From: Hemiscyllium ocellatum
Lineage: Eukaryota
Length of the DNA: 64,000 nucleotides
Assembly: GCF_020745735.1 (NCBI RefSeq)
Contig: NW_026869102.1
Span: forward strand, 128,367 to 192,366
Reading direction: 5' to 3'
The notes beneath the pieces were generated by a model that saw only the letters and a list, made by a program, of their open reading frames with translations, did not search any database and had not been told where the DNA came from. This document shows positions 34,808 through 64,000 of the stretch, piece by piece. Position 1 is the stretch's first letter. Each line of letters begins with the position of its first letter. Both the position numbers and the translations under genes were made by a program.

Positions 34808-34809
<2 letters not shown>

Positions 34810-37760: not shown

Positions 37761-37849
37761 GTCCCCTTGCCAACCTAATCTGTGTGGAGTTTGCACATTC
37801 TCCCCGCGTCTGCGTGGGTTTCCTCCATAACCCTCCGCTTCCTCCCACA

Positions 37850-38190
37850 CTCCAAAGATGTACAGGTTAGGGTGGGATTGGCTGTGGGGAAATTGTCCCG
37901 TAGTGCCCTGGGATGTGCAGGTTAGGGTGGGATCGGCCATGGGGAAATTGTCCCGTAGTGCCCAGGGATGTACAGGTTAGGGTGGGATTGGCCGTGGGGA
38001 AATTGTCCCGTAGTGCCCTGGGATGTGCAGGTTAGGGTGGGATTGGTCGTGGGGAAATTGTCCCGTAGTGCCCAGGGATGTGCAGGTTAGGGTGGGATTG
38101 GCCGTGGGGAAATTGTCCCGTAGTGCCCAGGGATGTACAGGTTAGGGTGGGATTGGCCGTGGGGAAATTGTCCCCTGGTGCCCAGGGATG
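37850..38190. repeat. 55-bp tandem repeat x6 (TGCAGGTTAGGGTGGGATTGGCCGTGGGGAAATTGTCCCGTAGTGCCCAGGGATG).
   Basis: Unit starts at 37861 and 37916 and continues. Resembles an internally expanded retroelement 3' tail; followed by a tail terminus ...GGGCGAAGGGCCTCTTTCCACGCTGTAGGGAATCTGA at 38190-38330. Confidence 0.85.
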
Positions 38191-38469
38191 TGCGGGTCAG
38201 GTGCGTTAGTCAGGGGGTAAACGTGGGAATGGGTCTAGGCGGGATACTCTTCGGAGGGTAAGTGTGGACTTGTTGGGGCGAAGGGCCTCTTTCCACGCTG
38301 TAGGGAATCTGACTTCACCCCCTCAGTCTGTCACTTCCCTCTGTAATCTGCAGCGTTCCTGTCTGGTCTCACCCATCCTTTACCCCTTCCCCACCATCCC
38401 AGTAACCTGAGCACATCCCAAACACTGCAGCCTCCTGCCCCTTTCTCCCCCTTTCCTGTTACTGACTTC

Positions 38470-38640
38470 AGAATGAAAGTCTCTGTCTCTCTCTCTCTGT
38501 CTCTCTCTCTCTCTGTCTCTCTCTCTCTCTGTCTCTCTCTCTCTCTGTCTCTCTCTCTCTCTGTCTCTCTCTCTCTCTGTCTCTCTCTCTCTCTGTCTCT
38601 CTCTCTCTCTGTCTCCCCCTGTTTCTCTTGTGTTGTGAAA
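38470..38640. repeat. (GTCTCTCTCTCT)n pyrimidine-rich 12-bp simple repeat, ~12 copies.
   Basis: Direct reading. Confidence 0.95.
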
Positions 38641-39075
38641 CTTTTTCCGACGATGTCGGAGGGTTTGAGCTCGGAGGAGAGGCTGAGGCTGTTTTCCATG
38701 GGGTTTCGGAGACTGAGGGGTGACGAGGGGCATGGATAGGGTGAATAGAGAAGGTCTTTTCCCCCTGCGATGGGGGAGTCCTGAACTAGAGGAATATAGG
38801 TTTAAGATAAGAGGGGGAAAGATATAAAAGGGACCTAAGGGGTAACTTTTTCACCCAGAGGGTTGTACGTGTATGGAATGAGCTGCCAGAGGGAGTGGTG
38901 GAGGCTGGTACGACTGCAACATTTAAGGGGCGTTTGGGTGGGTATAGGAATAGGAAGGGTTTGGTGGGATAGAGGCCGGGTGCTGGCAGGTGGGAATGGA
39001 TTGGGTTGGGATAACTGGGTCAGCACGGACAGGTTGGACCGAAGGGTCTGTTTCCGTGCTGTACATCTCTATGAA
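38640..39075 (+). mobile_element. CR1-like LINE 3' fragment (..ERLRLFSMGFRRLRGD.. then GNFFTQRVVRVWNELPEGVVEAGTTATFKGRLGGYRNRKGL, then full 3' tail).
   Basis: Translation plus tail identity with 28205-28400. Confidence 0.75.
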
Positions 39076-39149
39076 TGTGTGACAGGGACAGCACGGGGTT
39101 AGATACAGAGTAAAGCTCCCTATAATGAGGGATATAGAGGGTCTCCTCC

Positions 39150-39250
39150 ATTAAACACTCATAGGCCAGATGGGTTTAGTGGGATATGGGACTAGATTAG
39201 GTTCGGATATCTGGGTCAGCATGGACGGGTTGGGCCGAAGGGTCTGTGAC
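39150..39250 (+). mobile_element. Additional LINE 3' tail fragment (GGGTTTAGTGGGATATGGGACTAGATTAGGTTCGGATATCTGGGTCAGCATGGACGGGTTGGGCCGAAGGGTCTGTGACTGTG).
   Basis: Tail homology. Confidence 0.55.
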
Positions 39251-39439
39251 TGTGAGATCCTAAAGCTGGAGAAGCAGCTGTTTAAATCCTGGGTTAAAAT
39301 GTAGACATAGGATTCAGAGTAGGCTATTCTGGTCTTGCTGTGATATTCCGTTTGATCACGGCCTATCCTTTATCCTGTTGTTACATGGAGATTTTTACCA
39401 GGTGTCTGATATTTTCCCTGTGTTTCTGTTCTTCCTCAG

Positions 39440-39521
39440 AAAGTCCTATTTGTGATGTGTGCCGGTAATGAGCTCTTTTACGCGATGCTTTACCTCTTGA
39501 GTTTCATGGAGGGTCCTGTAG
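39440..39521 (+). CDS. CDIPT: CDIPT exon 5 (KVLFVMCAGNELFYAMLYLLSFMEGPV-); acceptor CCTCAG, donor GTAGGT at 39522.
   Basis: Aligns to human ALFTLCAGNELFYCLLYLFHFSEGPLV. Confidence 0.85.
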
Positions 39522-39669
39522 GTAGGTATTCACTTCCTGAGCAGCGATGGAACCCAAGTCGTCTGTGTTGCGCGTCTGTGTTGCGCGTGTGCGATTGGCT
39601 TGAAGCAGGTCTGGAATCTGAAACCACTCTGCTTCCCCACCCCACCCCATCCCCTTTTGTGGGGTCCTG

Positions 39670-40262
39670 GGGAAATGTCTGAACAAAGAGACCTTGGAGT
39701 GCAAGTTCATAGCTCCTTGAAAGTAGATAGGATAGTGAAGGCGTTTGTAATGCTTTTCTTTATTGGTCAGATATTGAGTACAGGAGTTGGGAGGGTCATG
39801 TTGCGGCTGTACAAGACATTGGTTAGGCCACTGTTGGAATATTGCGTGCATTTCTGGTGTCCCTCCTATCGGAAAGATGTTGTGAAACTTGAAAAGGTTC
39901 AGAAAAGATTTACAAGGATGTTGCCAGGGTTGGAGGGTGTGAGCTATAGGGATTGGCTGAACAGGCTGGGGCTGTTTTCCCTGGAGCGTCGGAGGCTGAG
40001 GGGTGACCTTATAGAGGTTTACAAAATTATGAGGGGGATGGATAGGGGAAATAGGCAAAGTCTGTTCCCTAGGGTCAGGGAGCCCAGAACTAGCGGGGCA
40101 TAGGTCCCTTTTATATCTTTCCCCTCTCACCCTAAACCTAAGGGGTAACTTTTTCACCCAGAGGGTGGTACGTGTATGGAATGAGCTGCCAGAGGAAGTG
40201 GTGGAGGCTGGTACGACTGCAACATTTTAAGGGGGGTTTGGATGGGTATAGGAATAGGAAAG
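39670..40262 (+). mobile_element. CR1-like LINE 3' portion immediately downstream of CDIPT exon 5 (RDLGVQVHSSLKV...[73 protein letters not shown]...FSPRGWYVYGMSCQRKWWRLV...).
   Basis: ORF 39600..40103 plus tail. Confidence 0.85.
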
Positions 40263-41410
40263 GTTTGTAGTGTACATGGATTTTAGTAAGGCATTTGATA
40301 AGGTTCCCCATGGTAGGCTTATGCGGAAAGTCAGGAGGCATGGGATAGTGGGAAATTTGGCCAATTGGATAGAAAACTGGCTAACCGGTCGAAGTCAGAG
40401 AGTGGTGGTAGATGGTAAATATTCAGCCTGGAGCCCAGTTACAAGTGGAGTTCCGCAGGGATCAGTTCTGGGTCCTCTGCTGTTTGTAATTTTTATTAAT
40501 GACTTGGATGAGGGAGTCGAAGGGTGGGTCAGTAAATTTGCAGATGATACGAAGATTGGTGGAGTTGTGGATAGTGAGGAGGGCTGTTGTCAGCTGCAAA
40601 GGGACTTAGATATGATGCAGAGCTGGGCTGAGGAGTGGCAGATGGAGTTCAACCCTGCCAAGTGTGAGGTTGTCCATTTTGGAAGAACAAATAAGAATGC
40701 GGAATACAGGGTTAACGGTGGGTTCTTAGTCAGGTGGAGGAACAGAGGGATCTTGGGGTCTATGTACATAGATCTTTGAAAGTTGCCACTCAGGTGGATA
40801 GAGCTTGTAAGAAGGCCTATGGTGTATTAGCGTTCATTAGCAGAGGGATTGAATTCAAGAGTCGTGAAGTGATGTTGCAGCTGTACAGGACTTTGGTTAG
40901 GCCACATTTGGAGTACTGTGTGCAGTTCTGGTTGCCTCACTTTAGGAGAGATGTGGAAGCTTTGGAGAGGGTGCAGAGAAGATTTACCAGGATGTTGCCT
41001 GGAATGGAGAATAGGTCATACGAGGATAGGTTGAGAGTTCTCGGCCTTTTCTTGTTGGAACGGCGAAGGATGAGGAGTGACTTGATAGAGGTTTATAAGA
41101 TGATCAGAGGAATAGATAGAGTTGACAGTCAGAAACTTTTTCCCCGGGTACAACAGAGTGTTACAAGGGGACATAAATTTAAGGTGAAGGGTGGAAGGTA
41201 TAGGGGAGATGTCAGGGGTGGGTTCTTTACCCAGAGAGTGGTGGGGGCATGGAATGCGCTGCCCGTGGCAGTGGTAGAGTCAGAATCATTGACTACCTTT
41301 AAGCGGCAATTGGATAGGTACATGGATGGGTGCTTAATCTAGGATAGATGTTCGGCACAACATCGTGGGCCGAAGGGCCTGTTCTGTGCTGTATTGTTCT
41401 ATGTTCTATG
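40263..41410 (+). mobile_element. 5'-truncated CR1-like LINE with a nearly complete RT domain (FSKAFDKVPH...[22 protein letters not shown]...SKFADDTKIGG...KCEVVHFGR...[72 protein letters not shown]...FFTQRVVGAWNALP...FKRQLDRYMDG). Ends in (TTCTATG)2.
   Basis: ORFs 40270..40779 and 40734..41342 (one frameshift). Inserted head-to-tail directly after the previous LINE fragment. Confidence 0.9.
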
Positions 41411-41590
41411 TTTGGAGGGATAGAGGCCAGGTGCTGGCAGGTGGGAATGGATTGGGTTGGGATAACTGGGTCAGCACGGACAGGTTGGACCGAAGGGTCT
41501 GTTTCCGTGCTGTACATCTCTATGACTTGATGGGACGAATGGCCTGTGCGTGAGAGACCAGCAGGCAATGCAATGGGCTGAACAGCCACA
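41410..41590 (+). mobile_element. LINE 3' tail fragment plus downstream tail-associated sequence (…CTCTATGACTTGATGGGACGAATGGCCTGTGCGTGAGAGACCAGCAGGCAATGCAATGGGCTGAACAGCC).
   Basis: Identity with 28270-28440. Confidence 0.7.
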
Positions 41591-42889
41591 GCACCCCACT
41601 CTCTGAGCTCCTCACCGACCTGGTGAATATATCGGCCATTCCTTCCTGGGTCAGAATCCCAGGATTCCCTCCCTCCCTTGGGGTCTACCCACAACAAGGG
41701 GACTGCAGTGGTTCGATGGGGCAGCTCAGACCCACCTTCTCAGGGGGGCAACTAGGGATGGGGGGCAACTAGGGACGGGGCGATAAATACTGCACCCAGT
41801 ATTTATTCATTTATTTTAAATGATTCTGGTTCAGTCCCTGAACCACTAAACCCTGCAAGACCACAGGCTGGGATGGGTGGCTAGTTTATTCAGGCAATCC
41901 AGAGCCAATGGGCTGAGTGGCCTCTCTCCGCTGTCTCGCTGGGGGTAACAGCCCAAGAATTGAACCGCACTGATCCTAGTGTCCTCACGGCTGTGAGGGT
42001 TTTGTAAATAGTCCCCGATATACCTGACTTTCCGAGACAGACTGCCAGGAAAACACACATCCGGACTCTGTGTTCTGAACAGGAAATTTCAATTCGTTGC
42101 AAATAATTAATTTGCCCATCGCTGAATCCTATCTTCACCCATCGGAAGTTAAAGCTCTTTTTAACCCCCGATAAAATTCCTGCTCCACAATCCTATGACC
42201 ATACAACAGAAACGTTGGTGTCATGGACAGAGGGAAGACCGGGAGGGAAGCTCAATAGGACCTGACCAATGAGATTCACTGAAATAACTGTCAGGAACTC
42301 CTGCTGCACCGTCCCCTTCCTTCAGAACGTCTTCTCACTTCCCTCCAGGGTGTGGAGGTGTCGGCGTTGGACGGGGGTGGACAAAGTTTAAAAATCACAC
42401 AACACCAGGTTATAATCCAACAGGTTTATTTGGAAGCACTAGCTTTCGGATCGCTGCTCCTTCATCAGGTGGTTGTGAAGGTATAAGATTGTAAGACACA
42501 GAATTTATAGCAACAGTTTACAGTGTGCAGTAGCTGAAATTATACCCTGAAAAAGACCTGGATTGTTTTAGTCTCCCATCATTTCAAATGACCATGTTGG
42601 TTTCAGTTCTTTCATATGTAAATGCCAGAGCTTTTTAAAAAAAAAATCTACATTCTCAAGTGAACTTGTAACAGTTGGTGTCATGTCGGCCCAGAGAATG
42701 TATTGAAGGTGTGAGCTTCCCTGTGTGAGGCTGTCTGTACCACAACGGTCAGACTGATTCTAATCGATAAAAATGGATTTTCAGAATTTTACATGGATTC
42801 ATGCAGTTTTTGAGCAAAGTAAAATGTAATTCTGTAAGTACAAATTCACCCGTGTGTGTGAGTGTGTGTGTGTGAAGGAGGTGGCACAG

Positions 42890-43880
42890 TGTGACTGGTT
42901 CACAACTTGTGAAGTCTCTCATTTATTGGATGAAAGCAACCAGATACAGTAATGGACAGGGGGTGGGGTGGGACAAACGGGTTTATTTTCCAGCAGAATT
43001 TCCCCCCCACCGCAGAAATGGTTTCTTCCCTTGGCTTCTGGATGTCCTTTTCACTCCCAGTTACCTGGGAATTAATCTCATGGTGATCGGAAGGCAGATG
43101 GAACTTTATCCTTTGTTGCTAAAGGGGATTATGGAGTTTAAAAGTGGGGAGGTTATGTTGCAGCCCTACAACATCCTGGTAAGGGCACACCTGGAATACT
43201 GCGTGCACTTTTGATCTCCAGAATTAAAAATGGATGTACTTGGAGTGGAGTGGAGTGGATGCAGAGGAGGTTCACTGAGTTGATTCCTGGAGTTGGAGAC
43301 AGTGAGGTTGGCAGACGTTGGAGATCAGTGTTGTGTGTATTGCTGGAAAAGCACAGCAGGTCAGGGAGCATCCTTTCCTGATGAAGGGTCGTGTCTGAAA
43401 CGTTGGCTCTGATGCTCCTCGGATGCTGCCTGACCTGCTGTGCTTTTCCAGCAAGACACTCTCGACTCTGATTCCAGAGTTGGCTGAGTAGACTGGGATT
43501 ACATTCATTTGAGTTTAGAATGAGGGGACCTTTATAGAAACATATGAAATGATGAAGGGAATCGAGAAGATAAGAAGCAGGGAGGTTATTTCCACTGGAG
43601 GGTGAAACTAGAACTAGGGGCGTAGCCTCCAAATAAGGGGGAGCAGAGTTCGGACTGAGCGGAGGAGGAACCCAGAGGGTTATGAGGTGGTGGGATTCCC
43701 TGGCCAGTGAAGAGCTACAGGGAGAGGCTGGGGCTGTTTTCCCTGGAACATCGGGGGCTGAGGCATGACCTTATAGAGGTTTATAAAATCATGAGGGGGC
43801 ATGGATAGGGTTAATGGCAGCCCTTTTTCCCCTGGGTGGGGGGGGATTTGAAGTCTAGGGGAGCAGTCTTAAGGTGAGAG
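42890..43880 (+). mobile_element. Old, degenerate CR1-like LINE 3' fragment (..EVMLQPYNILVRAHLEYCVHF.. then, beyond the inserted foldback, ..ETYEMMKGIEKIRSREV.. and ..GLFSLEHRGLRHDLIEVYKIMRGHG..). Interrupted by the foldback element at 43300-43465.
   Basis: Weak but recognisable ORF2 C-terminal motifs in translation. Confidence 0.5.
43300..43465. mobile_element. Foldback SINE-core hairpin (TTGCTGGAAAAGCACAGCAGGTCAGGGAGCATCC...GGATGCTGCCTGACCTGCTGTGCTTTTCCAGCAA), inserted into a degenerate LINE in CDIPT intron 5.
   Basis: Inverted arms read directly. Confidence 0.8.
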
Positions 43881-43934
43881 GGGAGAGATTTAATAAAGAC
43901 GGGGGGGGGGGCAGCTTTGACAAAGGGTTAGTTA

Positions 43935-44040
43935 GACTCAACGTCAGCTCTTTTCTCTGACGTTGCTGCCAGACCTGCTGAGTTTTTCCAGCATTTTCTC
44001 TTTTTTTTTGGTTTCAGATTCCAGCATCTGCAGTAATTTG
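43935..44040 (-). mobile_element. Partial SINE-like copy, reverse orientation (GCTGCCAGACCTGCTGAGTTTTTCCAGCA...CAGATTCCAGCATCTGCAG).
   Basis: Similarity to the other copies; degraded. Confidence 0.5.
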
Positions 44041-44069
44041 TTTTTACCTTTTTTTTTAATGAACAGGAA

Positions 44070-44165
44070 AGGGTTTGGAGGGATACGGGTCAGGAGCTGG
44101 GGCAGGTGTGGGACTAGGGAGCAGTTTGGCCGAAAGATCTGTTTCTGTGCTGTGCGACTCTGAGA
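44070..44165 (+). mobile_element. LINE 3' tail remnant (…GGAGCAGTTTGGCCGAAAGATCTGTTTCTGTGCTGTGCGACTCTGAG) ~170 bp upstream of the last CDIPT exon.
   Basis: Tail homology. Confidence 0.5.
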
Positions 44166-44333
44166 GAGCCACAGTTCAGAGTCCAAAAAAAGGCAGAATA
44201 TTTCAAAGCTGGGGTTGTTTGATACAGTGCTGCGGGTGTCTCCTGGTTCAGGCTGGAAGGTTGGGTGTAGTTCTCGAGATGGACTCCCGGCTCTCTGCTG
44301 CTCGATTGTAATCCCGGTTCTGTCTGTCCACAG

Positions 44334-44503
44334 TACCTCTCCTGAATATAGGCCTGTTCCAACTCCTGCTGTACAGTTCCTTCCCGATCTGCCTCATCAA
44401 AACAGCCATCAGCATCGTCCACCTGATCACAGCATCTCGCAACATGGCGGCCATAGACCAAGCAGAGGGTGAGAGGGGCCTTACAACCTGTAAGCTGGAC
44501 TGA
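44334..44503 (+). CDS. CDIPT: CDIPT terminal coding exon (-VPLLNIGLFQLLLYSSFPICLIKTAISIVHLITASRNMAAIDQAEGERGLTTCKLD*); acceptor TGTCCACAG, stop TGA at 44501-44503.
   Basis: Aligns to human VGLFRMGLWVTAPIALLKSLISVIHLITAARNMAALDAADRAKKK. The last ~14 aa diverge; an alternative GTGAGA donor at 44469 could splice to a further exon. Confidence 0.75.
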
Positions 44504-46399: not shown

Positions 46400-47390
46400 T
46401 GATGGTGGAGAGTTGTTTTTCAGACTGGAGGCCTGTGACCAGTGGAGTGCCACAAGGATCGGTGCTGGGTCCACTACTTTTCGGCATTTATATAAATGAT
46501 TTGGATGTGAACGTAGGAGGTATAGTTGGATGGTGACACCATAATTGGAGGTGTAGTGGACAGTGAAGTAGGTTACCTCAGATTACAATGGGATCTTGAT
46601 CAGCTGGGCCAATGGGCTGAGGAGTGGCAGATGGAGTTTAACTTGGGTAAACGTGAGGTGCTGCATTTTGGGGAAAGCAAATCTTAGCAGGACCTGTACG
46701 CTTAATGGTAAGGTCCAAGAGTGTTGTAGAACAAAAGTGCAGGTTTATAGCTCCTTGAAAGTGGAGTCGCAGGTAGATAGGGTAGTGAAGAAGGTGTTTG
46801 GTATGCTTTGCTTTGGTCAGAGTATTGAGTACAGGAGTTGGGAGGTCATGTTGTGGCTGGACAGGACATTGGTTAGGCCACTGTTGGAATATCGTGTGCA
46901 ATTCTGGTCTCCTTCCTATTGGAAAGGGGTTGTGAAACTTGAAAGGATTCAGAAAAGATTTACAAGGATGTTCCAAGGAGAGGCTGAACAGGCTGGGGCT
47001 GTTTTCCCTGGAGCGTCAGAGGCTGAGGGGTGACCTTATAGAGGTTTATAAAATCATGAGGGGGACATGGATAGGGTTAATAGACAAGGGGTGAGGGAGT
47101 TCAGAACTAGAGGGGCAGAGGTTTAGGGTGAGAGGGGAAGGATGTAAAAGGGACCTAAGGGGTAATTTTTTCAGCCAGAGGGTGGTGTGTGTGTGGAATG
47201 AGCTGCCAGAGGAAGTGGTGGAGGATGGTACGATTCCATTTAAAAAGTACGCGGATGGGTATATGAAAAGGAAGGTTTCAGAGGGATATGGGCCAAGTGC
47301 TGGCAAATGGGACGAGATTAATTTCAGATATCGGTGTGGACGAGTTGGGCTGAAGGGTCTGTGTCCGTGCTGTGCAGCTTCTCTGACTCG
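46400..47390 (+). mobile_element. Degenerate CR1-like LINE ([22 protein letters not shown]...VQVYSSLKVESQVDRVVKKVFGMLCFGQSIEYRSWEVMLWLDRTLVRPLLEYRVQFWSPSYWKGVVKLERIQKRFTRMF... plus 3' tail to ~47390).
   Basis: ORF 46596..47033 and tail homology; multiple stops and frameshifts. Confidence 0.75.
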
Positions 47391-49745: not shown

Positions 49746-50007
49746 AGGTCAGTGCCAGGCAATGGTGCTCACCTTGCAGAGCTAGTACCAGCAGAGTGGG
49801 CCGAATAGCCTGTGCTAGAACACGTCAGTAAAGGCCAGGCACTGGGATCCATGTCTAATACCAGGAGGAGAGATCAACCCCTCACTGTTACCCGGTTACT
49901 CCTGGTTTTGCTCTGTCTCGTTCTTCCCTTTTACAGGAGACATTCCCACCACAGGCAAGGAATTCCTGCCGAGGGGAACACGTCTCCTAACAGGGAGGTG
50001 GGGGGAG

Positions 50008-51150
50008 GACACTGACTCTCCCCGGGGTCCAGGGAGACACACTGACTCTCCCCAGGGTCCAGGGAGACACACTGACTCTCCTCGGGGTACAGGGGAACAC
50101 ACTGACTCTCCCCGGGGTACAGGGGAGACACACTGACTCTCCCCAGGGTACAGGGGAGACACACTGACTCTCCCCGGGGTACAGGGGAGACACACTGACT
50201 CTCCCCAGGGTACAGGGGAGACACACTGACTCTCCCCAGGGTACAGGGGAGACACACTGACTCTCCCCAGGGTACAGGGGAGACACACTGACTCTCCCCA
50301 GGGTACAGGGGAGACACACTGACTCTCCTCGGGGTACAGGGAAACACACTGACTCTCCCCGGGGTACAGGGGAGACACACTGACCCACCCCGGGGTACAG
50401 GGGAGACACACTGACCCTCCCCAGGGTACAGGGGAGACACACTGACTCTCCCCAGGGTACAGGGGAGACACACTGACTCTCCCCGGGGTACAGGGGAGAC
50501 ACACTGACTCTCCCCAGGGTACAGGGGAGACACACTGACTCTCCCCAGGGTACAGGGGAGACACACTGACTCTCCTCGGGGTACAGGGAAACACACTGAC
50601 TCTCCCCGGGGTACAGGGGAGACACACTGACTCTCCCCGGGGTACAGGGGAGACACACTGACTCTCCCCAGGGTACAGGGGAGACACACTGACCCACCCC
50701 GGGGTACAGGGGAGACACACTGACTCTCCTCGGGGTACAGGGAAACACACTGACTCTCCCCGGGGTACAGGGGAGACACACTGACTCTCCCCGGGGTACA
50801 GGGGAGACACACTGACTCTCCCCAGGGTACAGGGGAGACACACTGACCCACCCCGGGGTACAGGGGAACACACTGACCCTCCCCGGGGTACAGGGAGACA
50901 CACTGACTCTCCCCGGGTTACGGGGGAGACACTGACTCTCCCCGGGGTACGGGGAGACACTGACTCTCCCCGGGGTACGGGGGAGACACTGACTCTCCCC
51001 GGGGTACAGAGGGAGACACTGACTCTCCCCGGGATACAGGGGAGACACTGACTCTGCCCGGGGTATGGGGAGACACTGACTCTCCCTGGGGTACAGGGGG
51101 AGACACTGACTCTCCCTGGGATACGGGGGAGACACTGACTCTCCCCGGGA
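50008..51150. repeat. 31-bp minisatellite CACTGACTCTCCCCRGGGTACAGGGGAGACA, ~37 copies; the distal third has 30-bp ACTGACTCTCCCCGGGGTACGGGGGAGAC variants.
   Basis: Direct reading. Minus-strand ORFs of 521, 504 and 306 aa are stop-free artefacts. Confidence 0.95.
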
Positions 51151-51519: not shown

Positions 51520-52210
51520 TTAATATTAATGAGAGAGGGAGTGTGTGAGAGGGAGAGAGAGAGAGATGGCTCTGTGATGCAGAAATCAGTGAAGAGATAT
51601 TAATGAGAGAGGGAGTGTGTGAGAGGGAGGGAGAGAGAGATGGCTCTGTGATGCAGAAATCAGTGAAGGGATATTAATGAGAGAGGGAGTGTGTGAGAGG
51701 GAGGGAGGGAGAGAGAGAGATGGCTCTGTGATGCAGAAATCAGTGAAGAGATATTAATGAGAGAGGGAGTGTGTGAGAGGGAGAGAGAGAGAGATGGCTC
51801 TGTGATGCAGAAATCAGTGAAGGATATTAATGAGAGAGAGAGTGTGAGAGAGGGAGGGAGGGAGAGATGGCTCTGTGATGGAGAAATCACTGAAGAGATA
51901 TTAATGAGAGAGAGAGTGTGAGAGAGGGAGGGAGAGAGAGATGGCTCTGTGATGGAGAAACCAGTGAAGAGATATTAATGAGAGAGGGAGTGTGTGAGAG
52001 GGAGGGAGGGAGGGAGAGATGGCTCTGTGATGCAGAAATCAGTGAAGAGATATTAATGAGAGAGGGAGTGTGAGAGAGGGAGGGAGAGATGGCTCTGTGA
52101 TGCAGAAACCAGTGAAGAGATATTAATGAGAGAGGGAGTGTGTGAGAGGGAGGGAGAGAGAGATGGCTCTGTGATGCAGAAACCAGTGAAGAGATATTAA
52201 TGAGAGGGGA
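51520..52210. repeat. 70-85-bp tandem repeat x~9 (GATATTAATGAGAGAGGGAGTGTGTGAGAGGGAGGGAGAGAGAGATGGCTCTGTGATGCAGAAATCAGTGAAGA), with variable (GA)/(GGGA) tracts.
   Basis: ATATTAATGAG anchors at 51524, 51598, 51671, 51751, 51824, 51908 and onward. Confidence 0.9.
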
Positions 52211-52300: not shown

Positions 52301-52994
52301 CACCCTGCAATCTCCCCCCTGCTCCGCTTGGCTGGGCTGGGTGTTTAGGTTTGTCTTCTCCTTGGCAGGGTAGTGGTTCTCACCGCTCCTCTCCTCCCTG
52401 CTGTCTGCTCGTTGTGAGAATATGAATTATTGACTGGCGGATCTTGCCAAAGCTGCTGTTCCTTCCAGCCCTTTTCTGACGAGACATAACGGTGAGTATC
52501 TGGCTCACTCTGTACTGAATTCTGCCTTGTCCTCCCATTTATTCCCAGGGTAAACAGCTAGATGCAGATGATGTCTCTCGGAGATACTGAGGGAAATCGC
52601 AGGGTTCCGCTGGTAGAGAGGCCACTGTGTTAGTGATTGATGGCAGTGTTGACATTTCCCGGGGTTCCAAGACCTGCCTTAGACAGTGAATGCAGCAGCA
52701 ACACCACCCCCACCCCTCGCCCCAACTACAGATCTGGCCCGATAATGGCCACCCCCTCCACACTATCAGCATCCCCCAAACTGCCTGCTAATCTTCACAG
52801 CAAACACAGTCTCAATTTACACTCAGCGCTGTTCACTCATTCTCCACATCCACGCTGTCTCAATGGACCCATCGCACTCAGAACCTGCTCACTGCCTTGT
52901 AACCGGCCCCAGCCGCCCTCCCAGGGACCAGCCAACAAGAATTGGCCAGAGCAGCTCCTCAGGACCAAAAGCAAAACCTGCTTTTAATTCAGAA

Positions 52995-55900
52995 GAGTAA
53001 GGGTCACCAATGTTCATTCAGCAGGGTAAGGGTCACTCACTGTGTAACCGTACAGAGTCAGTGTTTATACAGCAGGGTAAGGGTCACTCACTGTGTAACC
53101 GTACTGTGTCAGTGTTTATACAGCAGGGTAAGGGTCACTCACTGTGTAACCGTGCAGAGTCATGGTTTATACAGTAGGGTAAGGGTCACTCACTGTGTAA
53201 CTGTACAGAGTCAGGAAGGGTCACTCACTGTATAGCTGTACAGAGTCAGGAAGGGTCACTCCCTGTATAACTGTACAGAGTCAGTGTTTATTCAGCAGGG
53301 TAAGGGTCACTCATTGTGTAACCATACAGAGTCAGTGTTTATACAGCAGGGTAAGGGTCACTCACTGTGTAACCGTACAGAGTCAGTGTTTATACAGCAG
53401 GGTAAGGGTCACTGTGTAACCGTACAGAGTCAGTGTTTATACAGCAGGGTAAGGGTCACTCACTGCGTAACCGTACGGAGTCAGTGTTTATTCAGCAGGG
53501 TAAGGGTCACTCACTGTGTAACCGTACAGAGTCAGTGTTTATACAGCAGGGTAAGGGTAACTCACTGTGTAACCGTACGGAGTCAGTGTTTATTCAGCAG
53601 AGTAAGGGTCACTCACTGTGTAACCGTACAGAGTCAGTGTTTATACAGCAGGGTAAGGGTCACTCACTGTGTAACCGTACAGAGTCAGTGTTTATACAGC
53701 AGGGTAAGGGTCACTCACAGTGTAACCGTACAGAGTCAGTGTTTATTCAGCAGGGTAAGGGTCACTCACTGTGTAACTGTACAGTGTCAGGAAGGGTCAC
53801 TCGCTGTATATCTGTACAGACTCAGTGTTTATACAGCAGGGTAAGGGTCACTCATTGTGTAACCATACAGAGTCAGCGTTTATACAGCAGGGTAAGGGTC
53901 ACTCACTGTGTAACCGTACAGAGTCAGTGTTTATTCAGCAGGGTAAGGGTCACTCACTGTGTAACCATACAGAATCAGTGTTTATTCAGTAGGGTAAGGG
54001 TCACTCACTGTGTAACCGTACAGAGTCAGGGTTTATACAGCAGGGTAAGGGTCACTCACTGTGTAACCGTACAGAGTCAGTGTTTATTCAGCAGGGTAAG
54101 GGTCACTCACTGTGTAACTGTACAGAGTCAGTGTTTATTCAACAGGGTAAGGGTCACTGTGTAACCGTACAGAGTCAGTGTTTATTCAGCAGGGTAAGGG
54201 TCACTCACTGTGTAACCGTACAGAGTCAGTGTTTATACAGCAGGGTAAGGGTCACTCACTGTGTAACCGTACAGAGTCAGTGTTTATACAGCAGGGTAAG
54301 GGTCACTCACTGTGTAACCGTACAGAGTCAGTGTTAATACAGCAGGGTAAGGATCACTCACTGTGTAACCATACAGAATCAGTGTTTATTCAGCAGGGTA
54401 AGGGTCACTCACTGTGTCACCGTACTGTGTCAGTGTTTATTCAGCAGGGTAAGGGTCACTCACTGTGTAACCGTACTGTGTCAGTGTTTATACAGCAGGG
54501 TAAGGGTCACTCACTGTGTAACCGTACAGAGTCAGTGTTTATACAGCAGGGTAAGGGTCACTCACTGTGTAACCGTACAGAGTCAGTGTTTATACAGCAG
54601 GGTAAGGGTCACTCACTGTGTAACCGTACAGAGTCAGTGTTTATACAGCAGGGTAAGGGTCACTCACTGTGTAACTGTACAGAGTCAGTGTTTATACAGC
54701 AGGGTAAGGGTCACTGTGTAACCGTACAGAGTCAATGTTTATACAGCAGGGTAAGGGTCACTCACTGTGTAACCGTACAGAGTCAGGGTTTATACAGCAG
54801 GGTAAGGGTCACTCACTGTGTAACCGTACAGAGTCAGTGTTCATTCAGCAGGGTAAGGGTCACTCACTGTGTAACTGTACAGAGTCAGGAAGGGTCACTC
54901 ACTGTATAACTGTACAGAGTCAGGGTTTATTCACCACGGTGAGGGTCACTCACTGTGTAACCGTACAGAGTCAGTGTTTATACAGCAGGGTAAGGGTCAC
55001 TCACTGTGTAACCGTACAGAGTCAGTGTTTATCCAGCAGGGTAAGGGTCACTCACTGTATAACCGTACAGAGTCAGTGTTTATACAGCAGGGTAAGGGTC
55101 ACTCACTGTGTAACCGTACAGAGTCAGTGTTTATACAGCAGGGTAAGGGTCACTCACTGTGTAACTGTACAGAGTCAGTGTTTATTCAGCAGAGTAAGGG
55201 TCACTGTGTAACCGTACAGAGTCAGTGTTTATTCAGCAGGGTAAGGCTCACTCACTATATAACTGTAGAGTGTCAGGAAGGGTCACTCACTGTATAACTG
55301 TACAGAGTCAGGGTTTATTCAGCAGGGTAAGGGTCACTCACTGTGTAACTGTACAGTGTCAGGAAGGGTCACTCACTGTGTAACTGTACAGAGTCAGGGT
55401 TTATTCAGCAGGGTAAGGGTCACTCACTGTGTAACCGTACAGAGTCAGGGTTTATACAGCAGGGTAAGGGTCACTCACTGTGTCACCGTACAGAGTCAGG
55501 GTTCATTCAGCAGGGTAATGGTCACTCACTGTGTAACTGTACAGAGTCAGTGTTCATACAGCAGGGTAATGGTACACGTTTATACAGCAGGGTAAGGGTC
55601 ACTGTGTAACCGTACTGAGTCAGTGTTTATACAGCAGGGTAAGGGTCACTCACTGTTTAACCGTACAGAGTCAGTGTTTATTCAGCAGGGTAAGGGTCAC
55701 TCACTGTGTAACCGTACAGAGTCAGTGTTTATTCAACAGGGTAAGGGTCACTGTGTAACCGTACAGAGTCAGTGTTTATTCAGCAGGGTAAGGGTCACTC
55801 ACTGTGTAACCGTACAGAGTCAGTGTTTATTCAGCAGGGTAAGGGTCACTCACTGTGTAACTGTACAGAGTCAGTGTTTATACAGCAGGGTAAGGGTCAC

Positions 55901-58900
55901 TCACTGTGTAACCGTACAGAGTCAGTGTTTATTCAGCAGGGTAAGGGTCACTCACTGTGTAACCGTACAGAGTCAGTGTTTATACAGCAGAGTAAGGGTC
56001 ACTCACTGTGTAACCGTACAGAGTCAGTGTTTATACAGCAGGGTAAGGGTCACTCACTGTGTAACCGTACAGAGTCAGTGTTTATACAGCAGGGTAAGGG
56101 TCACTCACTGTGTAACCGTACAGAGTCAGTGTTTATACAGCAAGGTAAGGGTCACTCACTGTGTAACCGTACAGAGTCAGTGTTTATACAGCAGGGTAAG
56201 GGTCACTCACTGTGTAACCGTACGGAGTCAGTGTTTATACAGCAGGGTAAGGGTCACTCACTGTGTAACCGTACGGAGTCAGTGTTTATTCAGCAGGGTA
56301 AGGGTCACTCACTGTGTAACCGTACAGAGTCAGTGTTTATACAGCGGGGTAAGGGTCACTCACTGTGTAACCGTACAGAGTCAGTGTTTATACAGCAGGG
56401 TAAAGGTCACTGTGTAACCGTACAGAGTCAGGGTTTATACAGCAGGGTAAGGGTCACTCACTGTGTAACCGTACAGAGTCAGTGTTTATACAGCAGGGTA
56501 AGGGTCACTGTGTAACCGTACAGAGTCAGGGTTTATTCAGCAGGGTAAGGGTCAGTCACTGTGTAACTGTACAGAGTCAGTGTTTATTCAACAGGGTAAG
56601 GGTCACTGTGTAACCGTACAGAGTCAGTGTTTATACAGCAGGATAAGGGTCACTGTGTAACCGTACAGAGTCAGTGTTTATTCAGCATGGTAAGGGTCAC
56701 TCACTGTATAACTGTAGAGTGTCAGGAAGGGTCACTCACTGTATAACTGTACAGAGTCAGGGTTTATTCAGCAGGGTAAGGGTCACTCACTGTGTAACTG
56801 TACAGTGTCAGGAAGGGTCACTCACTGTATAACTGTACAGAGTCAGGGTTTATTCAGCAGGGTAAGGGTCACTCACTGTGTAACCGTACAGAGTCAGGGT
56901 TTATACAGCAGGGTAATGGTCACTCACTGTGTAACCGTACAGAGTCAGTGTTTATTCAGCATGGTAAGGGTCACTCACTGTATAACTGTAGAGTGTCAGG
57001 AAGGGTCACTCACTGTATAACTGTACAGAGTCAGGATTTATTTAGCAGGGTATGGGTCACTCACTGTGTAACTGTACAGTGTCAGGAAGGGTCACTCACT
57101 GTGTAACTGTACAGAGTCAGGGTTTATTCAGCAGGGTAAGGGTCACTCACTGTGTCACCGTACAGAGTCAGTGTTCATTCAGCAGGGTAATGGTCACTCA
57201 CTGTGTAACTGTACAGAGTCAGTGTTTATACAGCAGGGTAATGGTACACGTTTATACAGCAGGGTAAGGGTCACTGTGTAACCGTACAGAGTCAGTGTTT
57301 ATACAGCAGGGTAAGGGTCACTCACTGTGTAACCGTACAGAGTCAGTGTTTATTCAGCAGGGTAAGGGTCACTCACTGTGTAACCGTACAGAGTCAGTGT
57401 TTATTCAACAGGGTAAGGGTCACTGTGTAACCGTACAGAGTCAGTGTTTATTCAGCAGGGTAAGGGTCACTCACTGTGTAACCGTACTGAGTCAGTGTTT
57501 ATTCAGCAGGGTAAGGGTCACTCACTGTGTAACCGTACGGAGTCAGTGTTTATACAGCAGGGTAAGGGTCACTGTGTAACCGTACAGAGTCAGGGTTTAT
57601 ACAGCAGGGTAAGGGTCACTCACTGTGTAACCGTACAGAGTCAGTGTTTATACAGCAGGGTAAGGGTCACTGTGTAACCGTACAGAGTCAGGGTTTATTC
57701 AGCAGGGTTATGGTACACGTTTATTCAGCAGGGTAAGGGTCACTGTGTAACCGTACAGAGTCAGTGTTTATTCAGCAGGGTAATGGTACACGTTTATACA
57801 GCAGGGTAAGTGTCACTGTGTAACCGTACTGAGTCAGTGTTTATTCAGCAGGGTAAGGGTCACTCACTGTGTAACCGTACAGAGTCAGTGTTTATACAGC
57901 AGGGTAAGGGTCACTCACTGCGTAACCGTACGGAGTCAGTCTTTATTCAGCAGGGTAAGGGTCACTCACTGTGTAACTGTACAGAGTCAGTGTCTATACA
58001 GCAGGGTAAGGGTCACTCACTGTGTAACCGTACAGAGTCAGTGTTTATTCAGCAGGGTAAGGGTCACTCACTGTGTAACTGTACAGTGTCAGGGTTTATT
58101 CAGCAGGGTAAGGGTCACTGTGTAACCGTACAGAGTCAGTGTTTATACAGCAGGGTAAGGGTCACTCACTGTGTAACTGTACAGAGTCAGTGTTTATACA
58201 GCAGGGTAAGGGTCACTCACTGTGTAACCGTACAGAGTCAGTGTTTATTCAGCAGGGTAAGGGTCACTCACTGTGTAACTGTACAGTGTCAGGGTTTATT
58301 CAGCAGGGTAAGGGTCACTGTGTAACCGTACAGAGTCAGTGTTTATACAGCAGGGTAAGGGTCACTCACTGTGTAACCGTACAGAGTCAGTGTTTATACA
58401 GCAGGGTAAGGGTCACTGTGTAACCGTACAGAGTCAGGGTTTATACAGCAGGGTAAGGGTCACTCACTGTGTAACCGTACAGAGTCAGTGTTTATACAGC
58501 AGGGTAAGGGTCACTGTGTAACCGTACAGAGTCAGGGTTTATTCAGCAGGGTTATGGTACACGTTTATTCAGCAGGGTAATGGTACACGTTTATACAGCA
58601 GGGCAAAGGTCACTGTGTAACCGTACAGAGTCAATGTTTATTCAGCAGGGTAAGGGTCACTCACTGTGTAACCGTACAGAGTCAGGGTTTATTCAGCAGG
58701 GTAAGGGTCACTCACTGTGTAACTGTACAGAGTCAGTGTTTATTCAACAGGGTAAGGGTCACTGTGTAACCGTACAGAGTCAGTGTTTATACAGCAGGGT
58801 AAGGGTCACTCACTGTGTAACCGTACGGAGTCAGTCTTTATTCAGCAGGGTAAGGGTCACTCACTGTGTAACCGTACAGAGTCAGTGTTTATTCAGCAGG

Positions 58901-61900
58901 GTAAGGGTCACTCACTGTGTAACCGTACAGAGTCAGGGTTTATACAGCAGGGTAATGGTCACTCACTGTGTAACCGTACAGAGTCAGTGTTTATTCAGCA
59001 TGGTAAGGGTCACTCACTGTATAACTGTAGAGTGACAGGAAGGGTCACTCACTGTATAACTGTACAGAGTCAGGGTTTATTTAGCAGGGTATGGGTCACT
59101 CACTGTGTAACTGTACAGTGTCAGGAAGGGTCACTCACTGTGTAACTGTACAGAGTCAGGGTTTATTCAGCAGGGTAAGGGTCACTCACTGTGTCACCGT
59201 ACAGAGTCAGTGTTCATTCAGCAGGGTAATGGTCACTCACTGTGTAACTGTACAGAGTCAGTGTTTATACAGCAGGGTAATGGTACACGTTTATACAGCA
59301 GGGTAAGGGTCACTGTGTAACCGTACAGAGTCAGTGTTTATACAGCAGGGTAAGGGTCACTCACTGTGTAACCGTACAGAGTCAGTGTTTATTCAGCAGG
59401 GTAAGGGTCACTCACTGTGTAACCGTACAGAGTCAGTGTTTATTCAACAGGGTAAGGGTCACTGTGTAACCGTACAGAGTCAGTGTTTATTCAGCAGGGT
59501 AAGGGTCACTCACTGTGTAACCGTACAGAGTCAGTGTTTATACAGCAGGGTAAGGGTCACTCACTGTGTAACCGTACAGAGTCAGTGTTTATTCAGCAGG
59601 GTAAGGGTCACTCACTGTGTAACCGTACAGAGTCAGTGTTTATACAGCAGGGTAAGGGTCACTCACTGTGTAACCGTACAGAGTCAGGGTTTATGCAGCA
59701 GGGTAAGGGTCACTCACTGTGTAACCGTACAGAGTCAGTGTTTATACAGCAGGGTAAGGGTCACTCACTGTGTAACCGTACGGAGTCAGTGTTTATACAG
59801 CAGGGTAAGGGTCACTGTGTAACCGTACAGAGTCAGGGTTTATACAGCAGGGTAAGGGTCACTCACTGTGTAACCGTACAGAGTCAGTGTTTATACAGCA
59901 GGGTAAGGGTCACTGTGTAACCGTACAGAGTCAGGGTTTATTCAGCAGGGTTATGGTACACGTTTATTCAGCAGGGTAAGGGTCACTGTGTAACCGTACA
60001 GAGTCAGTGTTTATTCAGCAGGGTAATGGTACACGTTTTTCAGCAGGGTAAGTGTCACTGTGTAACCGTACTGAGTCAGTGTTTATTCAGCAGGGTAAGG
60101 GTCACTCACTGTGTAACCGTACAGAGTCAGTGTTTATACAGCAGGGTAAGGGTCACTCACTGCGTAACCGTACGGAGTCAGTCTTTATTCAGCAGGGTAA
60201 GGGTCACTCACTGTGTAACTGTACAGAGTCAGTGTTTATACAGCAGGGTAAGGGTCACTCACTGTGTAACCGTACAGAGTCAGTGTTTATTCAGCAGGGT
60301 AAGGGTCACTCACTGTGTAACCGTACAGAGTCAGTGTTTATTCAGCAGGGTAAGGGTCACTCACTGTGTAACTGTACAGTGTCAGGGTTTATTCAGCAGG
60401 GTAAGGGTCACTGTGTAACCGTACAGAGTCAGTGTTTATACAGCAGGGTAAGGGTCACTCACTGTGTAACTGTACAGAGTCAGTGTTTATACAGCAGGGT
60501 AAGGGTCACTCACTGTGTAACCGTACAGAGTCAGTGTTTATTCAGCAGGGTAAGGGTCACTCACTGTGTAACAGTACAGTGTCAGGGTTTATTCAGCAGG
60601 GTAAGGGTCACTGTGTAACCGTACAGAGTCAGTGTTTATACAGCAGGGTAAGGGTCACTCACTGTGTAACCGTACAGAGTCAGTGTTTATACAGCAGGGT
60701 AAGGGTCACTGTGTAACCGTACAGAGTCAGGGTTTATTCAGCAGGGTTATGGTACACGTTTATTCAGCAGGGTAATGGTACACGTTTATACAGCAGGGCA
60801 AAGGTCACTGTGTAACCGTACAGAGTCAATGTTTATTCAGCAGGGTAAGGGTCACTCACTGTGTAACCGTACGGAGTCAGTCTTTATTCAGCAGGGTAAG
60901 GGTCACTCACTGTGTAACCGTACAGAGTCAGTGTTTATTCAGCAGGGTAAGGGTCACTCACTGTGTAACTGTACAGAGTCAGTGTTTATTCAGCAGGGTA
61001 AGGGTCACTGTGTAACCGTACAGAGTCAGTGTTTATTCAGCATGGTAAGGGTCACTCACTGTATAACTGTAGAGTGTCAGGAAGGGTCACTCACTGTATA
61101 ACTGTACAGAGTCAGGGTTTATTCAGCAGGGTAAGGGTCACTCACTGTGTAACTGTACAGTGTCAGGAAGGGTCACTCACTGTATAACTGTACAGAGTCA
61201 GGGTTTATACAGCAGGGTAAGGGTCACTCACTGTGTAACTGTACAGAGTCAGGGTTTATTTAGCAGGGTATGGGTCACTCACTGTGTCACCGTACAGAGT
61301 CAGTGTTCATTCAGCAGGGTAATGGTCACTCACTGTGTAACTGTACAGAGTCAGTGTTTATACAGCAGGGTAATGGTACACGTTTATACAGCAGGGTAAG
61401 GGTCACTGTGTAACCGTACAGAGTCAGTGTTTATACAGCAGGGTATGGGTCACTCACTGTTTAACCGTACAGAGTCAGTGTTTATTCAGCAGGGTAAGGG
61501 TCACTCACTGTGTAACCGTACAGAGTCAGTGTTTATTCAGCAGGGTAAGGGTCACTCACTGTGTAACTGTACAGTGTCAGGGTTTATTCAGCAGGGTAAG
61601 GGTCACTGTGTAACCGTACAGAGTCAGTGTTTATACAGCAGGGTAAGGGTCACTCACTGTGTAACCGTACAGAGTCAGTGTTTATACAGCAGGGTAAGGG
61701 TCACTGTGTAACCGTACAGAGTCAGGGTTTATACAGCAGGGTAAGGGTCACTCACTGTGTAACCGTACAGAGTCAGTGTTTATACAGCAGGGTAAGGGTC
61801 ACTGTGTAACCGTACAGAGTCAGGGTTTATTCAGCAGGGTAAGGGTCACTCACTGTGTAACTGTACAGTGTCAGGAAGGGTCACTCACTGTATAACTGTA

Positions 61901-64000
61901 CAGAGTCAGGGTTTATACAGCAGGGTAAGGGTCACTCACTGTGTAACTGTACAGAGTCAGGGTTTATTTAGCAGGGTATGGGTCACTCACTGTGTCACCG
62001 TACAGAGTCAGTGTTCATTCAGCAGGGTAATGGTCACTCACTGTGTAACTGTACAGAGTCAGTGTTTATACAGCAGGGTAATGGTACACGTTTATACAGC
62101 AGGGTAAGGGTCACTGTGTAACCGTACAGAGTCAGTGTTTATACAGCAGGGTATGGGTCACTCACTGTTTAACCGTACAGAGTCAGTGTTTATTCAGCAG
62201 GGTAAGGGTCACTCACTGTGTAACTGTACAGTGTCAGGGTTTATTCAGCAGGGTAAGGGTCACTGTGTAACCGTACAGAGTCAGTGTTTATACAGCAGGG
62301 TAAGGGTCACTCACTGTGTAACCGTACAGAGTCAGTGTTTATACAGCAGGGTAAGGGTCACTGTGTAACCGTACAGAGTCAGGGTTTATACAGCAGGGTA
62401 AGGGTCACTCACTGTGTAACCGTACAGAGTCAGTGTTTATACAGCAGGGTAAGGGTCACTGTGTAACCGTACAGAGTCAGGGTTTATTCAGCAGGGTTAT
62501 GGTACACGTTTATTCAGCAGGGTAATGGTACACGTTTATACAGCAGGGCAAAGGTCACTGTGTAACCGTACAGAGTCAATGTTTATTCAGCAGGGTAAGG
62601 GTCACTCACTGTGTAACCGTACGGAGTCAGTCTTTATTCAGCAGGGTAAGGGTCACTCACTGTGTAACCGTACAGAGTCAGTGTTTATTCAGCAGGGTAA
62701 GGGTCACTCACTGTGTAACTGTACAGAGTCAGTGTTTATTCAGCAGGGTAAGGGTCACTGTGTAACCGTACAGAGTCAGTGTTTATTCAGCATGGTAAGG
62801 GTCACTCACTGTATAACTGTAGAGTGTCAGGAAGGGTCACTCACTGTATAACTGTACAGAGTCAGGGTTTATTCAGCAGGGTAAGGGTCACTCACTGTGT
62901 AACTGTACAGTGTCAGGAAGGGTCACTCACTGTATAACTGTACAGAGTCAGGGTTTATACAGCAGGGTAAGGGTCACTCACTGTGTAACTGTACAGAGTC
63001 AGGGTTTATTTAGCAGGGTATGGGTCACTCACTGTGTCACCGTACAGAGTCAGTGTTCATTCAGCAGGGTAATGGTCACTCACTGTGTAACTGTACAGAG
63101 TCAGTGTTTATACAGCAGGGTAATGGTACACGTTTATACAGCAGGGTAAGGGTCACTGTGTAACCGTACAGAGTCAGTGTTTATACAGCAGGGTATGGGT
63201 CACTCACTGTTTAACCGTACAGAGTCAGTGTTTATTCAGCAGGGTAAGGGTCACTCACTGTGTAACCGTACAGAGTCAGTGTTTATTCAACAGGGTAAGG
63301 GTCACTGTGTAACCGTACAGAGTCAGTGTTTATTCAGCAGGGTAAGGGTCACTCACTGTGTAACCGTACAGAGTCAGTGTTTATTCAGCAGGGTAAGGGT
63401 CACTCACTGTGTAACTGTACAGAGTCAGTGTTTATACAGCAGGGTAAGGGTCACTCACTGTGTAACCGTACAGAGTCAGTGTTTATACAGCAGGATAAGG
63501 GTCACTCACTGTGTAACCGTACAGAGTCAGTGTTTATTCAGCAGGGTAAGGGTCACTCACTGTGTAACCGTACAGAGTCAGTGTTTATACAGCAGGGTAA
63601 GGGTCACTCACTGTGTAACCGTACAGAGTCAGGGTCTATTCAGCAGGGTAAGGGTCACTGTGTAACCGTACAGAGTCAGGGTTTATACAGCAGGGTAAGG
63701 GTCACTCACTGTGTAACTGTACAGAGTCAGTGTTTATTCAACAGGGTAAGGGTCACTCACTGTGTAACCGTACAGAGTCAGTGTTTATACAGCAGGGTAA
63801 GGGTCACTCACTGTGTAACCGTACAGAGTCAGTGTTTATACAGCAGGGTAAGGGTCACTCACTGAGTAACTGTACAGTGTCAGGGTTTATTCAGCCGGGT
63901 AAGGGTCACTGTGTCACCGTACAGAGTCAGTGTTTATACAGCAGGGTAAGGGTCACTCACTGTGTAACAGTACAGTGTCAGGGTTTATACAGCAGGGTAA
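52995..64000. repeat. Satellite array E: ~50-bp unit CAGCAGGGTAAGGGTCACTCACTGTGTAACCGTACAGAGTCAGTGTTTATA (51 bp), ~220 copies. Sub-variants: 47-bp units lacking CACT; TCAGGAAGGGTCACTCACTGTATAACTGTACAGAG units; GGTAATGGTACACGTTTAT junction units. Higher-order periodicity ~1.75-2.2 kb; the array continues beyond the window end.
   Basis: Direct reading: unit starts at 53342 and 53392, and so on. The GGTTATGGTACACG marker recurs at ~57700, 58545, 59935, 60740 and 62490. Identical artefact ORFs recur at 61160, 61868 and 62910, and at 60775 and 62525. Confidence 0.95.

Follow-up and report, generated by a model that had tools for sequence, protein, structure and literature searches.

A 51-bp satellite array downstream of CDIPT that appears orthologous and conserved across carpet shark families

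Satellites are usually seen as fast-evolving, species-specific filler of genomes. The locus analysed here raises the question of whether such an array can stay in place and keep its unit over long periods and, if so, whether selection or slow turnover conserves it. The locus is a stretch of 64,000 nucleotides from Hemiscyllium ocellatum (NCBI RefSeq assembly GCF_020745735.1, contig NW_026869102.1, positions 128,367 to 192,366 of the forward strand), hereafter called the window. Its last part, from about 52,988 to 64,000 (the last base of the window), is a satellite that we call array E. It consists of about 217 head-to-tail units, mostly of 51 bp and all in the + orientation, and begins about 8.5 kb downstream of the gene CDIPT. 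Its last unit is cut by the window end, and the array covers at least 11 kb. Array E is traceable at one orthologous junction in three shark genera. Divergence amounts to 13-33% in the unique DNA next to it and to 22-26% in other arrays of the locus, whereas its unit has hardly changed. It is therefore a clean test case for whether long-lived satellites are conserved by selection or by slow turnover. Being a satellite, E is ordinary in kind; it is unusual in its well-documented positional and sequence conservation. What appears to be new here is that the orthology and conservation of the array extend over shark genera and families. We consider it rather probable that array E is an ancient, locus-anchored, non-coding satellite kept by unequal exchange, conversion and slippage in a slowly evolving lineage.

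Array E at one junction in three species

The window was compared with the CDIPT locus of Chiloscyllium punctatum, taken with 10-kb flanks (L001), and with the corresponding locus of the whale shark, R. typus (L002). In C. punctatum, an upstream purine-rich 36-bp array is followed by CDIPT, a 30-bp minisatellite (GACACTGACTCTCCCC) and a 74-bp array. After these come unique DNA over about 775 bp and then a 51-bp array. The latter runs from L001 33,307 to the end of the fetched sequence, and 28 of its units were compared. The whale shark locus displays a diverged homolog of the 74-bp array, the shared unique flank and a single E unit (AAGGGTCACTCACTGTGTAACCGTACAGGGTCAGTGTTTATTCAGC) that directly adjoins a run of N. 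This run corresponds to an assembly gap at about 27,045-27,545 of L002 in the whale shark reference (GCF_021869965.1, NC_063380.1). Another gap, of 10 N at about 26,184 of L002, lies inside the homolog of the 74-bp array. Hence, this reference assembly breaks at array E and, more generally, is interrupted by the tandem arrays of this locus.

In a three-species alignment, the array begins at one orthologous point, after the sequence ...AAACCTGCyyTTArT. In H. ocellatum only, this boundary carries a degenerate, short (about 29-bp) partial unit, TTCAGAAGAGTAAGGGTCACCAATGTTCA (52,988-53,010), recognized by reading of the sequence and in the alignment and absent from C. punctatum and R. typus. Since the junction between flank and array is shared by the three species, the array predates the split between Hemiscylliidae and Rhincodontidae. 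The divergence of orectolobiform families is older than the K-Pg boundary (PMC8529718). As judged from this alignment, array E appears to have been inherited in place since the common ancestor of the two families.

The chromosome that bears the whale shark locus measures 4.16 Mb; the locus occupies 4.02-4.04 Mb, and its distance to the chromosome end is about 116 kb. The setting of array E is therefore probably the distal part of a microchromosome, its position being given by the whale shark as a proxy. This setting gives some ground to an alternative explanation in which E is one locus of a dispersed family. The family might have arisen as a tandem-repeat module of a transposable element, or be a satellite of subtelomeres or centromeres that several microchromosomes share, and the conservation of E would reflect family dynamics. 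Besides the nearby chromosome end in the whale shark, the window is dense in other arrays and in fragments of long interspersed nuclear elements (LINEs). The unit also contains GGGTAAGGGT, one mismatch from the telomeric GGGTTAGGGT (read by eye, with a chance estimated at about 2%), and an 11-mer that it has in common with a 31-bp minisatellite hints at local motif reuse. However, beyond the array no E-like copies are found in the remaining 53 kb of the window or elsewhere in L001 and L002, and (TTAGGG)n telomere repeats are absent from all three loci. Moreover, the orthologous junction indicates inheritance in place and not independent insertion, and centromeric satellites usually evolve fast. 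We regard membership in a dispersed family as quite unlikely.

Neither half of the unit was found in JGI metagenome contigs, and one half was not found in GTDB genomes or IMG/VR either. These searches gave no evidence of a prokaryotic or viral origin. A literature search retrieved no publication that describes the E unit or contains its 32-mer core.

Conservation of the unit: turnover or constraint

Array E was divided into units at the conserved anchor AGGGTCAC. The 51-bp consensus, AGGGTCACTCACTGTGTAACCGTACAGAGTCAGTGTTTATTCAGCAGGGTA, is identical to that of C. punctatum at 50 of 51 positions, and the single whale shark unit matches the H. ocellatum consensus at 44 of 45. Over gap-free columns, the unique flank of H. 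ocellatum is 86-87.5% identical to that of C. punctatum and 67-69% identical to that of R. typus. The various arrays of the locus can be ranked by the identity of their consensus between the two hemiscylliids: E and a small 55-bp intronic array come first with 98%, followed by the 74-bp array (95%), the 31-bp array (87.5%) and the large upstream 37/36-bp arrays (74-78%). On these alignments, E clearly seems the best conserved among the large arrays of the locus. As in the satellites known as frozen, the unit appears to have been retained over tens of millions of years, the whale shark side of this comparison being one unit.

Mean divergence between units is 5.7% within H. ocellatum, 4.3% within C. 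punctatum (28 units) and 6.5% between the two species. As regards concerted evolution, the excess of divergence between species over that within species is therefore small. Since diversity within the array (5.7%) is about 0.4 of the flank divergence, little time was available for fixed differences to arise between the hemiscylliids. Furthermore, incomplete turnover keeps a consensus ancestral. Therefore, a naive binomial test of consensus conservation overstates it, and it is the whale shark comparison that carries the weight. The conservation of the unit between H. ocellatum and C. punctatum is thus compatible with neutrality. According to the explanation that we favor, the consensus would be near-unchanged mainly because ancestral-type copies form a large pool that turns over slowly and incompletely, in a lineage with slow mutation. 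Substitution rates of sharks are very low, although raised near the ends of small chromosomes, and the dS separating the whale shark from the zebra shark is 0.06-0.11 over about 50 million years (PMC13100897).

Several observations weigh against this explanation. Of 45 positions in the whale shark unit, one differs, as against 31-33% of the aligned sites in the flanks. At equal mutation rates, about 9-12 differences in 45 would be expected (P of about 1e-3 to 1e-4), a rough estimate that allows for coalescence within the array at 5.7% diversity and is based on a single unit beside an assembly gap. In addition, the other large arrays have diverged far more (74-78% identity upstream and 87.5% for the 31-bp array, versus 98% for E). 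Neutrality thus does not seem easily compatible with the whale shark comparison, and constraint or conversion bias may also act on the unit, a possibility that is unproven.

In its strongest form, constraint would mean that E is a functional cis-element. It would provide some 200 or more identical binding sites to a sequence-specific factor, or act as a chromatin boundary or organiser by CDIPT near a microchromosome end, and its conservation would be due to selection on the unit. Consistent with such a role, the unit is conserved beyond its flanks (44/45 versus 67-69% in the whale shark, 50/51 versus 86-87% in C. punctatum), other large arrays of the locus have diverged by 22-26% in consensus and the position of the array is kept in three species. 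Moreover, unit positions 2-33 are almost invariant in C. punctatum. Putative motifs can also be read by eye: GGGTCA (a half-site of the nuclear-receptor type), the forkhead-like TGTTTAT and CAGCAGGG, which would be the first half of a CTCF-like core. However, the whale shark side is a single unit beside an assembly gap, and a consensus may stay ancestral without selection; the consensus of the small 55-bp intronic array is also identical at 54 of 55 positions. The only CpG of the unit, at position 21, decays freely in H. ocellatum: C is replaced by T in 39 of 145 units, which is the commonest variant. This excess of C to T is as expected for methylated and unconstrained DNA, and it suggests germline methylation at a site that is unprotected. 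Furthermore, loss of 4, 16 or 25 bp from the unit is tolerated, and the resulting variants have been amplified. The hairpin potential of the unit does not help either. At -6 kcal/mol, the fold of the central dyad is equalled in 11 of 200 shuffles (z = -1.8), which is not significant, and folding of the dimer and of the 35-bp and 26-bp variants is unremarkable. We find a cis-regulatory or structural role possible but doubtful. It also seems to us unlikely that E is specifically a locus-specific, selectively constrained array 3' of CDIPT on a shark microchromosome, kept since before the split between bamboo/epaulette sharks and the whale shark (>66 million years).

Units, variants and block duplications

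Tandem Repeats Finder (TRF) reports a 51-bp period at 53,011-53,790 and 53,792-64,000, with about 218 copies and 81-86% matches. After splitting at the anchor, 145 units measure 51 bp, 40 measure 47 bp and 17 measure 35 bp, and there are 13 composites of 72-99 bp. The 47-bp units have lost one TCAC of the TCACTCAC doublet, whereas the 35-bp units lack a 16-bp segment (of the TGTTTATWCAGCAGGG type) and carry the TGTATAACTGTACAG variant. The 13 composites contain 16 shortened 26-bp units (ATGGTACACGTTTATWCAGCAGGGTA) that lack the central dyad segment. A previous examination of the letters only, hereafter the sequence-only reading, had described a distinct satellite of about 50 bp that runs off the window and includes 47-bp deletion variants. 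TRF and unit splitting bear this out, and the 51-mer that it quoted occurs exactly 32 times.

The 51-bp units share a mean pairwise identity of 94.3% and a mean identity of 96.4% to the consensus, and are found in 54 distinct versions. Position 41 is the most variable (T in 79 units, A in 64), and position 34 is also highly variable (T or G). Some variants are restricted to H. ocellatum: 41A, found in 44% of its units, and 21T, found in 27%, are both missing from the 28 units of C. punctatum. Conversely, runs of four adjacent units with a common 24G or 14C are found in C. punctatum. Such runs of neighbors with the same variant point to short-range spread of variants to adjacent units, and slippage-type deletions may have given rise to the 47-, 35- and 26-bp variants. 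The edge of the array also differs between the two species, 35- and 47-bp units being found within the first 1.5 kb in H. ocellatum and none in C. punctatum.

According to TRF and to the succession of unit lengths, the array comprises two zones. The proximal one (53,011-55,517), about 2.5 kb long, is made mostly of 51-bp units with scattered 47- and 35-bp units. It has no 26-bp units and no exact duplicates of at least 250 bp, which all lie further in. The distal zone (55,518-64,000) is delimited by unit lengths, block comparison and shuffles. It combines block duplications, 51- and 47-bp units and all 16 of the 26-bp units, located at 13 sites, while its 35-bp units fall in recurring 'c-A-c' groups. 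This distal 8.5 kb is a patchwork of recent copies of multi-unit blocks with a loose supra-unit organization of about 2 kb.

The longest exact duplicate, 906 bp in length, occurs at 60,634-61,539 and 62,384-63,289, with a lag of 1,750 bp. A 413-bp block is present in three exact copies (61,104-61,516 and others starting at 61,812 and 62,854). These confirm the identical multi-unit blocks noticed in the sequence-only reading. When the order of units was shuffled (n=100), the longest exact repeat was on average 179 bp (sd 19), with a maximum of 229 bp. Hence, the block structure is far above chance. More generally, blocks of 250-906 bp are 98-100% identical at lags of 708, 1,042, 1,750, 2,039, 2,243, 2,293, 3,288, 3,945 and 7,554 bp. 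Near-identical blocks at so many lags suggest that unequal exchange or gene conversion would copy blocks of 5-40 units.

The composites serve as landmarks of these duplications. A 99-bp composite (47 + 26 + 26 bp) that carries a 64-nt junction string is found at 58,507-58,605 and, identically, at 60,702-60,800 and 62,452-62,550. Pairs of 73-bp composites (47 + 26 bp) are located at 57,663-57,808 and 59,906-60,050, and a 77-bp composite (51 + 26 bp) at 55,518-55,594, with others at 57,190, 59,229, 61,322, 62,030 and 63,072. The 26-bp truncated units are passengers moved along within duplicated blocks. The sequence-only reading had proposed junction units near 57,700, 58,545, 59,935, 60,740 and 62,490, recurring every 1.75-2.2 kb. 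These positions are accurate within a few bases and the 64-nt string is exact at 58,550, 60,745 and 62,495. However, the sites at about 57,700 and 59,935 are of the related 73-bp type, and the third type of site, the 77-bp composite with its six sites, had been missed. The spacing holds for sites of the same type only (2,243, 2,195, 1,750, 2,039 and 2,093 bp) and not for the five sites taken in order.

The same reading had considered these recurrences as higher-order repeats (HORs). Near-identical patches of 250-906 bp do exist, but the period is not fixed. Beyond multiples of about 51 bp, autocorrelation gives weak peaks only and no single long period. Segments between equivalent 77-bp landmarks are 1,672, 2,039, 2,093 and 1,750 bp long, and align at 94-97% identity with 178-429 gap columns between complete segments. 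This identity is barely above the mean of 94.3% between units, and the patches alone reach 98-100%. A regular HOR is therefore rejected: irregular landmark spacing and gapped alignment indicate a mosaic of recent segmental duplications.

Assemblers can mis-join a satellite at exact repeats of such length (413-906 bp), and the whale shark assembly breaks at this very array. Array E, or its exact multi-unit duplicates, might thus be an assembly artefact. However, E units stand at one junction in each of the three species, whose assemblies are independent. Furthermore, the duplicated blocks have differing flanks and include diverged copies (97-99%) besides the exact ones. We consider an artefact very unlikely.

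Array E also includes, on the + strand only, open reading frames (ORFs) of up to 264 aa, and the 51-bp length of the unit is a multiple of three (17 codons). The array might therefore encode a repetitive protein. However, the two stop-free + frames out of three are near what chance gives for 17 codons, and 57 of the 217 units (47 or 35 bp) shift the frame. Moreover, the variable positions of the unit display no 3-base periodicity and no codon-position bias. A search of 5.8 billion proteins with the translated unit gave no relatives. Pfam scores for the array are inflated by the summing of sub-threshold repeats, and no single stretch passes. It is extremely improbable that the unit encodes a protein repeat, and this candidate was rejected. 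No Rfam match at the gathering threshold or at E <=1 and no tRNA (ARAGORN) were found in array E.

Array E thus has the many head-to-tail copies in one orientation of a satellite and the features of a non-coding one that matches no known RNA, and not those of a protein-coding tandem repeat. The size of its unit (51 bp) and its unique proximal flank are those of a minisatellite, which E may be if it is a single-locus array; it covers at least 11 kb. A macrosatellite of the DXZ4/D4Z4 type was rejected, since the unit is 51 bp and the blocks of about 2 kb are irregular.

The CDIPT locus and known systems

According to tblastn, CDIPT occupies 29,994-44,503 on the + strand, with six coding exons starting at about 29,994, 34,342, 35,270, 36,766, 39,440 and 44,330 and a stop codon at about 44,501-44,503. 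Every exon is 100% identical to the CDIPT protein of H. ocellatum, mismatches occurring only beyond splice sites. The best database match is CDIPT from C. punctatum, whose 90% cluster also includes the H. ocellatum protein. The sequence-only reading had placed CDIPT in a short euchromatic gap of about 24 kb between two different satellite domains. The gene is indeed present in a 23.4-kb interval (29,635-52,987) between the end of the upstream arrays at 29,634 and the start of E at 52,988. However, besides CDIPT and LINE reverse transcriptase fragments, this interval holds six smaller arrays. For the downstream neighbor, which we presume to be MVP, a human MVP query gave only mammalian, reptilian and amphibian proteins among the matches listed.

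A 31-bp minisatellite (GGGGAGACACACTGACTCTCCCCGGGGTACA) detected by TRF lies on the + strand at 50,002-51,149 (L001 29,622-30,193 in C. punctatum). E had been called unrelated to the other arrays, and this holds for the upstream arrays A-D, with which its longest shared words are at chance level. By contrast, the 11-mer AGAGTCAGTGT is common, in inverted orientation, to E and to this minisatellite 2 kb upstream, a match that 0 of 300 shuffles reach and that is also found in C. punctatum. It could reflect common ancestry or a reused motif. The 74-bp array just upstream of E (51,523-52,210; L001 31,250-32,531; L002 25,809-26,184) provides a graded contrast to E at one locus. It has 9 copies here versus 17 in C. 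punctatum, with 95% consensus identity, and its whale shark units have diverged to 57-69 bp.

Upstream of CDIPT, at least five purine-rich arrays lie back to back from 1 to 29,634. Unit lengths are 37 bp at 1-12,000, 37 bp (another unit) at 13,239-20,499, 16 bp at 21,331-27,838, 23 bp at 27,895-28,205 and 38 bp at 29,054-29,634. The two 37-bp arrays show an extreme strand asymmetry (GC skew of +0.75 to +0.89 up to 20 kb), the 16-bp array has an AT skew of +0.84 to +0.88, and the CpG observed/expected ratio is 0.00-0.14 in the three upstream arrays measured. The orthologous 36-bp array of C. punctatum (L001 1-7,048) is only 74-78% identical in consensus. From the end of the 38-bp array to the start codon of CDIPT (29,994), the distance is only 360 bp. 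From the end of a related 28-bp array of C. punctatum (L001 9,157-10,001 region) to the annotated start of the gene, it is 356 bp. The promoter must therefore border on a tandem array in each of the two species.

Within a CDIPT intron, a 55-bp array at 37,857-38,201 has 6.3 copies, versus 4.3 copies in C. punctatum (L001 20,039-20,273), with consensus sequences identical at 54 of 55 positions; it may derive from a transposable element. A perfect 16-bp repeat (TCTCTCTCTCTCTGTC; 8.1 copies, 100% identity) is also located in a CDIPT intron, at 38,486-38,615. Two ORFs on opposite strands at 31,992-32,152 both begin with MVLEKHSRSGSIR and share their last 15 residues, which indicates an inverted-repeat (palindromic) element of about 150 bp. 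This element matches L001 17,447-17,625 of C. punctatum in both orientations. LINE reverse transcriptase fragments are found in CDIPT introns and downstream of the gene (32,441-34,084, 39,600-41,342 and 46,526-47,094), and similar copies are present at the C. punctatum and whale shark loci.

Array E resembles classical satellites or large minisatellites under concerted evolution. It is a non-coding array of more than 11 kb in a single orientation, with units 94% alike, spread of variants within species, and more recent block duplications in the interior than at the edge. However, most satellites turn over quickly between related species, whereas the consensus of E is almost unchanged and a single-copy junction, orthologous between families, anchors the array. 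With HORs of the alpha-satellite type, E shares multi-unit blocks that are 98-100% identical and landmark units that recur about every 1.75-2.2 kb. It differs from them by the lack of a constant period, by segments that align at 94-97% with gaps, and by units that are not markedly more diverged within a block than the blocks themselves.

The PstI/HindIII satellites of sturgeons are also long-lived. Excerpts of two reports present ancient satellites of crocodilians (PMC10900743) and FA-SAT (PMC5714208) as long-lived, frozen satellites. Like E, these families have kept their unit, in lineages that evolve slowly, for tens to hundreds of millions of years. As far as the excerpts go, they are genome-wide families found by hybridisation or read clustering, whereas the conservation of E appears at one orthologous junction.

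The macrosatellites DXZ4 and D4Z4 have kilobase units with promoters, ORFs or CTCF sites. They share with E a tandem array beside genes whose position is conserved between species, but the unit of E is 51 bp long and is known from its sequence alone. If E were a constrained platform, it would be a short-unit analogue of mammalian macrosatellites such as DXZ4.

PO41 and CNM are subtelomeric and microchromosomal tandem repeats of birds with units of about 40-50 bp. In chicken, the dot chromosomes are described as repeat-rich in an excerpt of one report (PMC9974502). As far as this excerpt allows the comparison, E shares with such repeats a unit of about this size, a probable location on very small chromosomes or near their ends, and genes lying among arrays. 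It has no sequence similarity to them, and its own chromosomal position is given by the whale shark only. The E locus bears on the coexistence of genes such as CDIPT with flanking arrays on repeat-dense microchromosomes.

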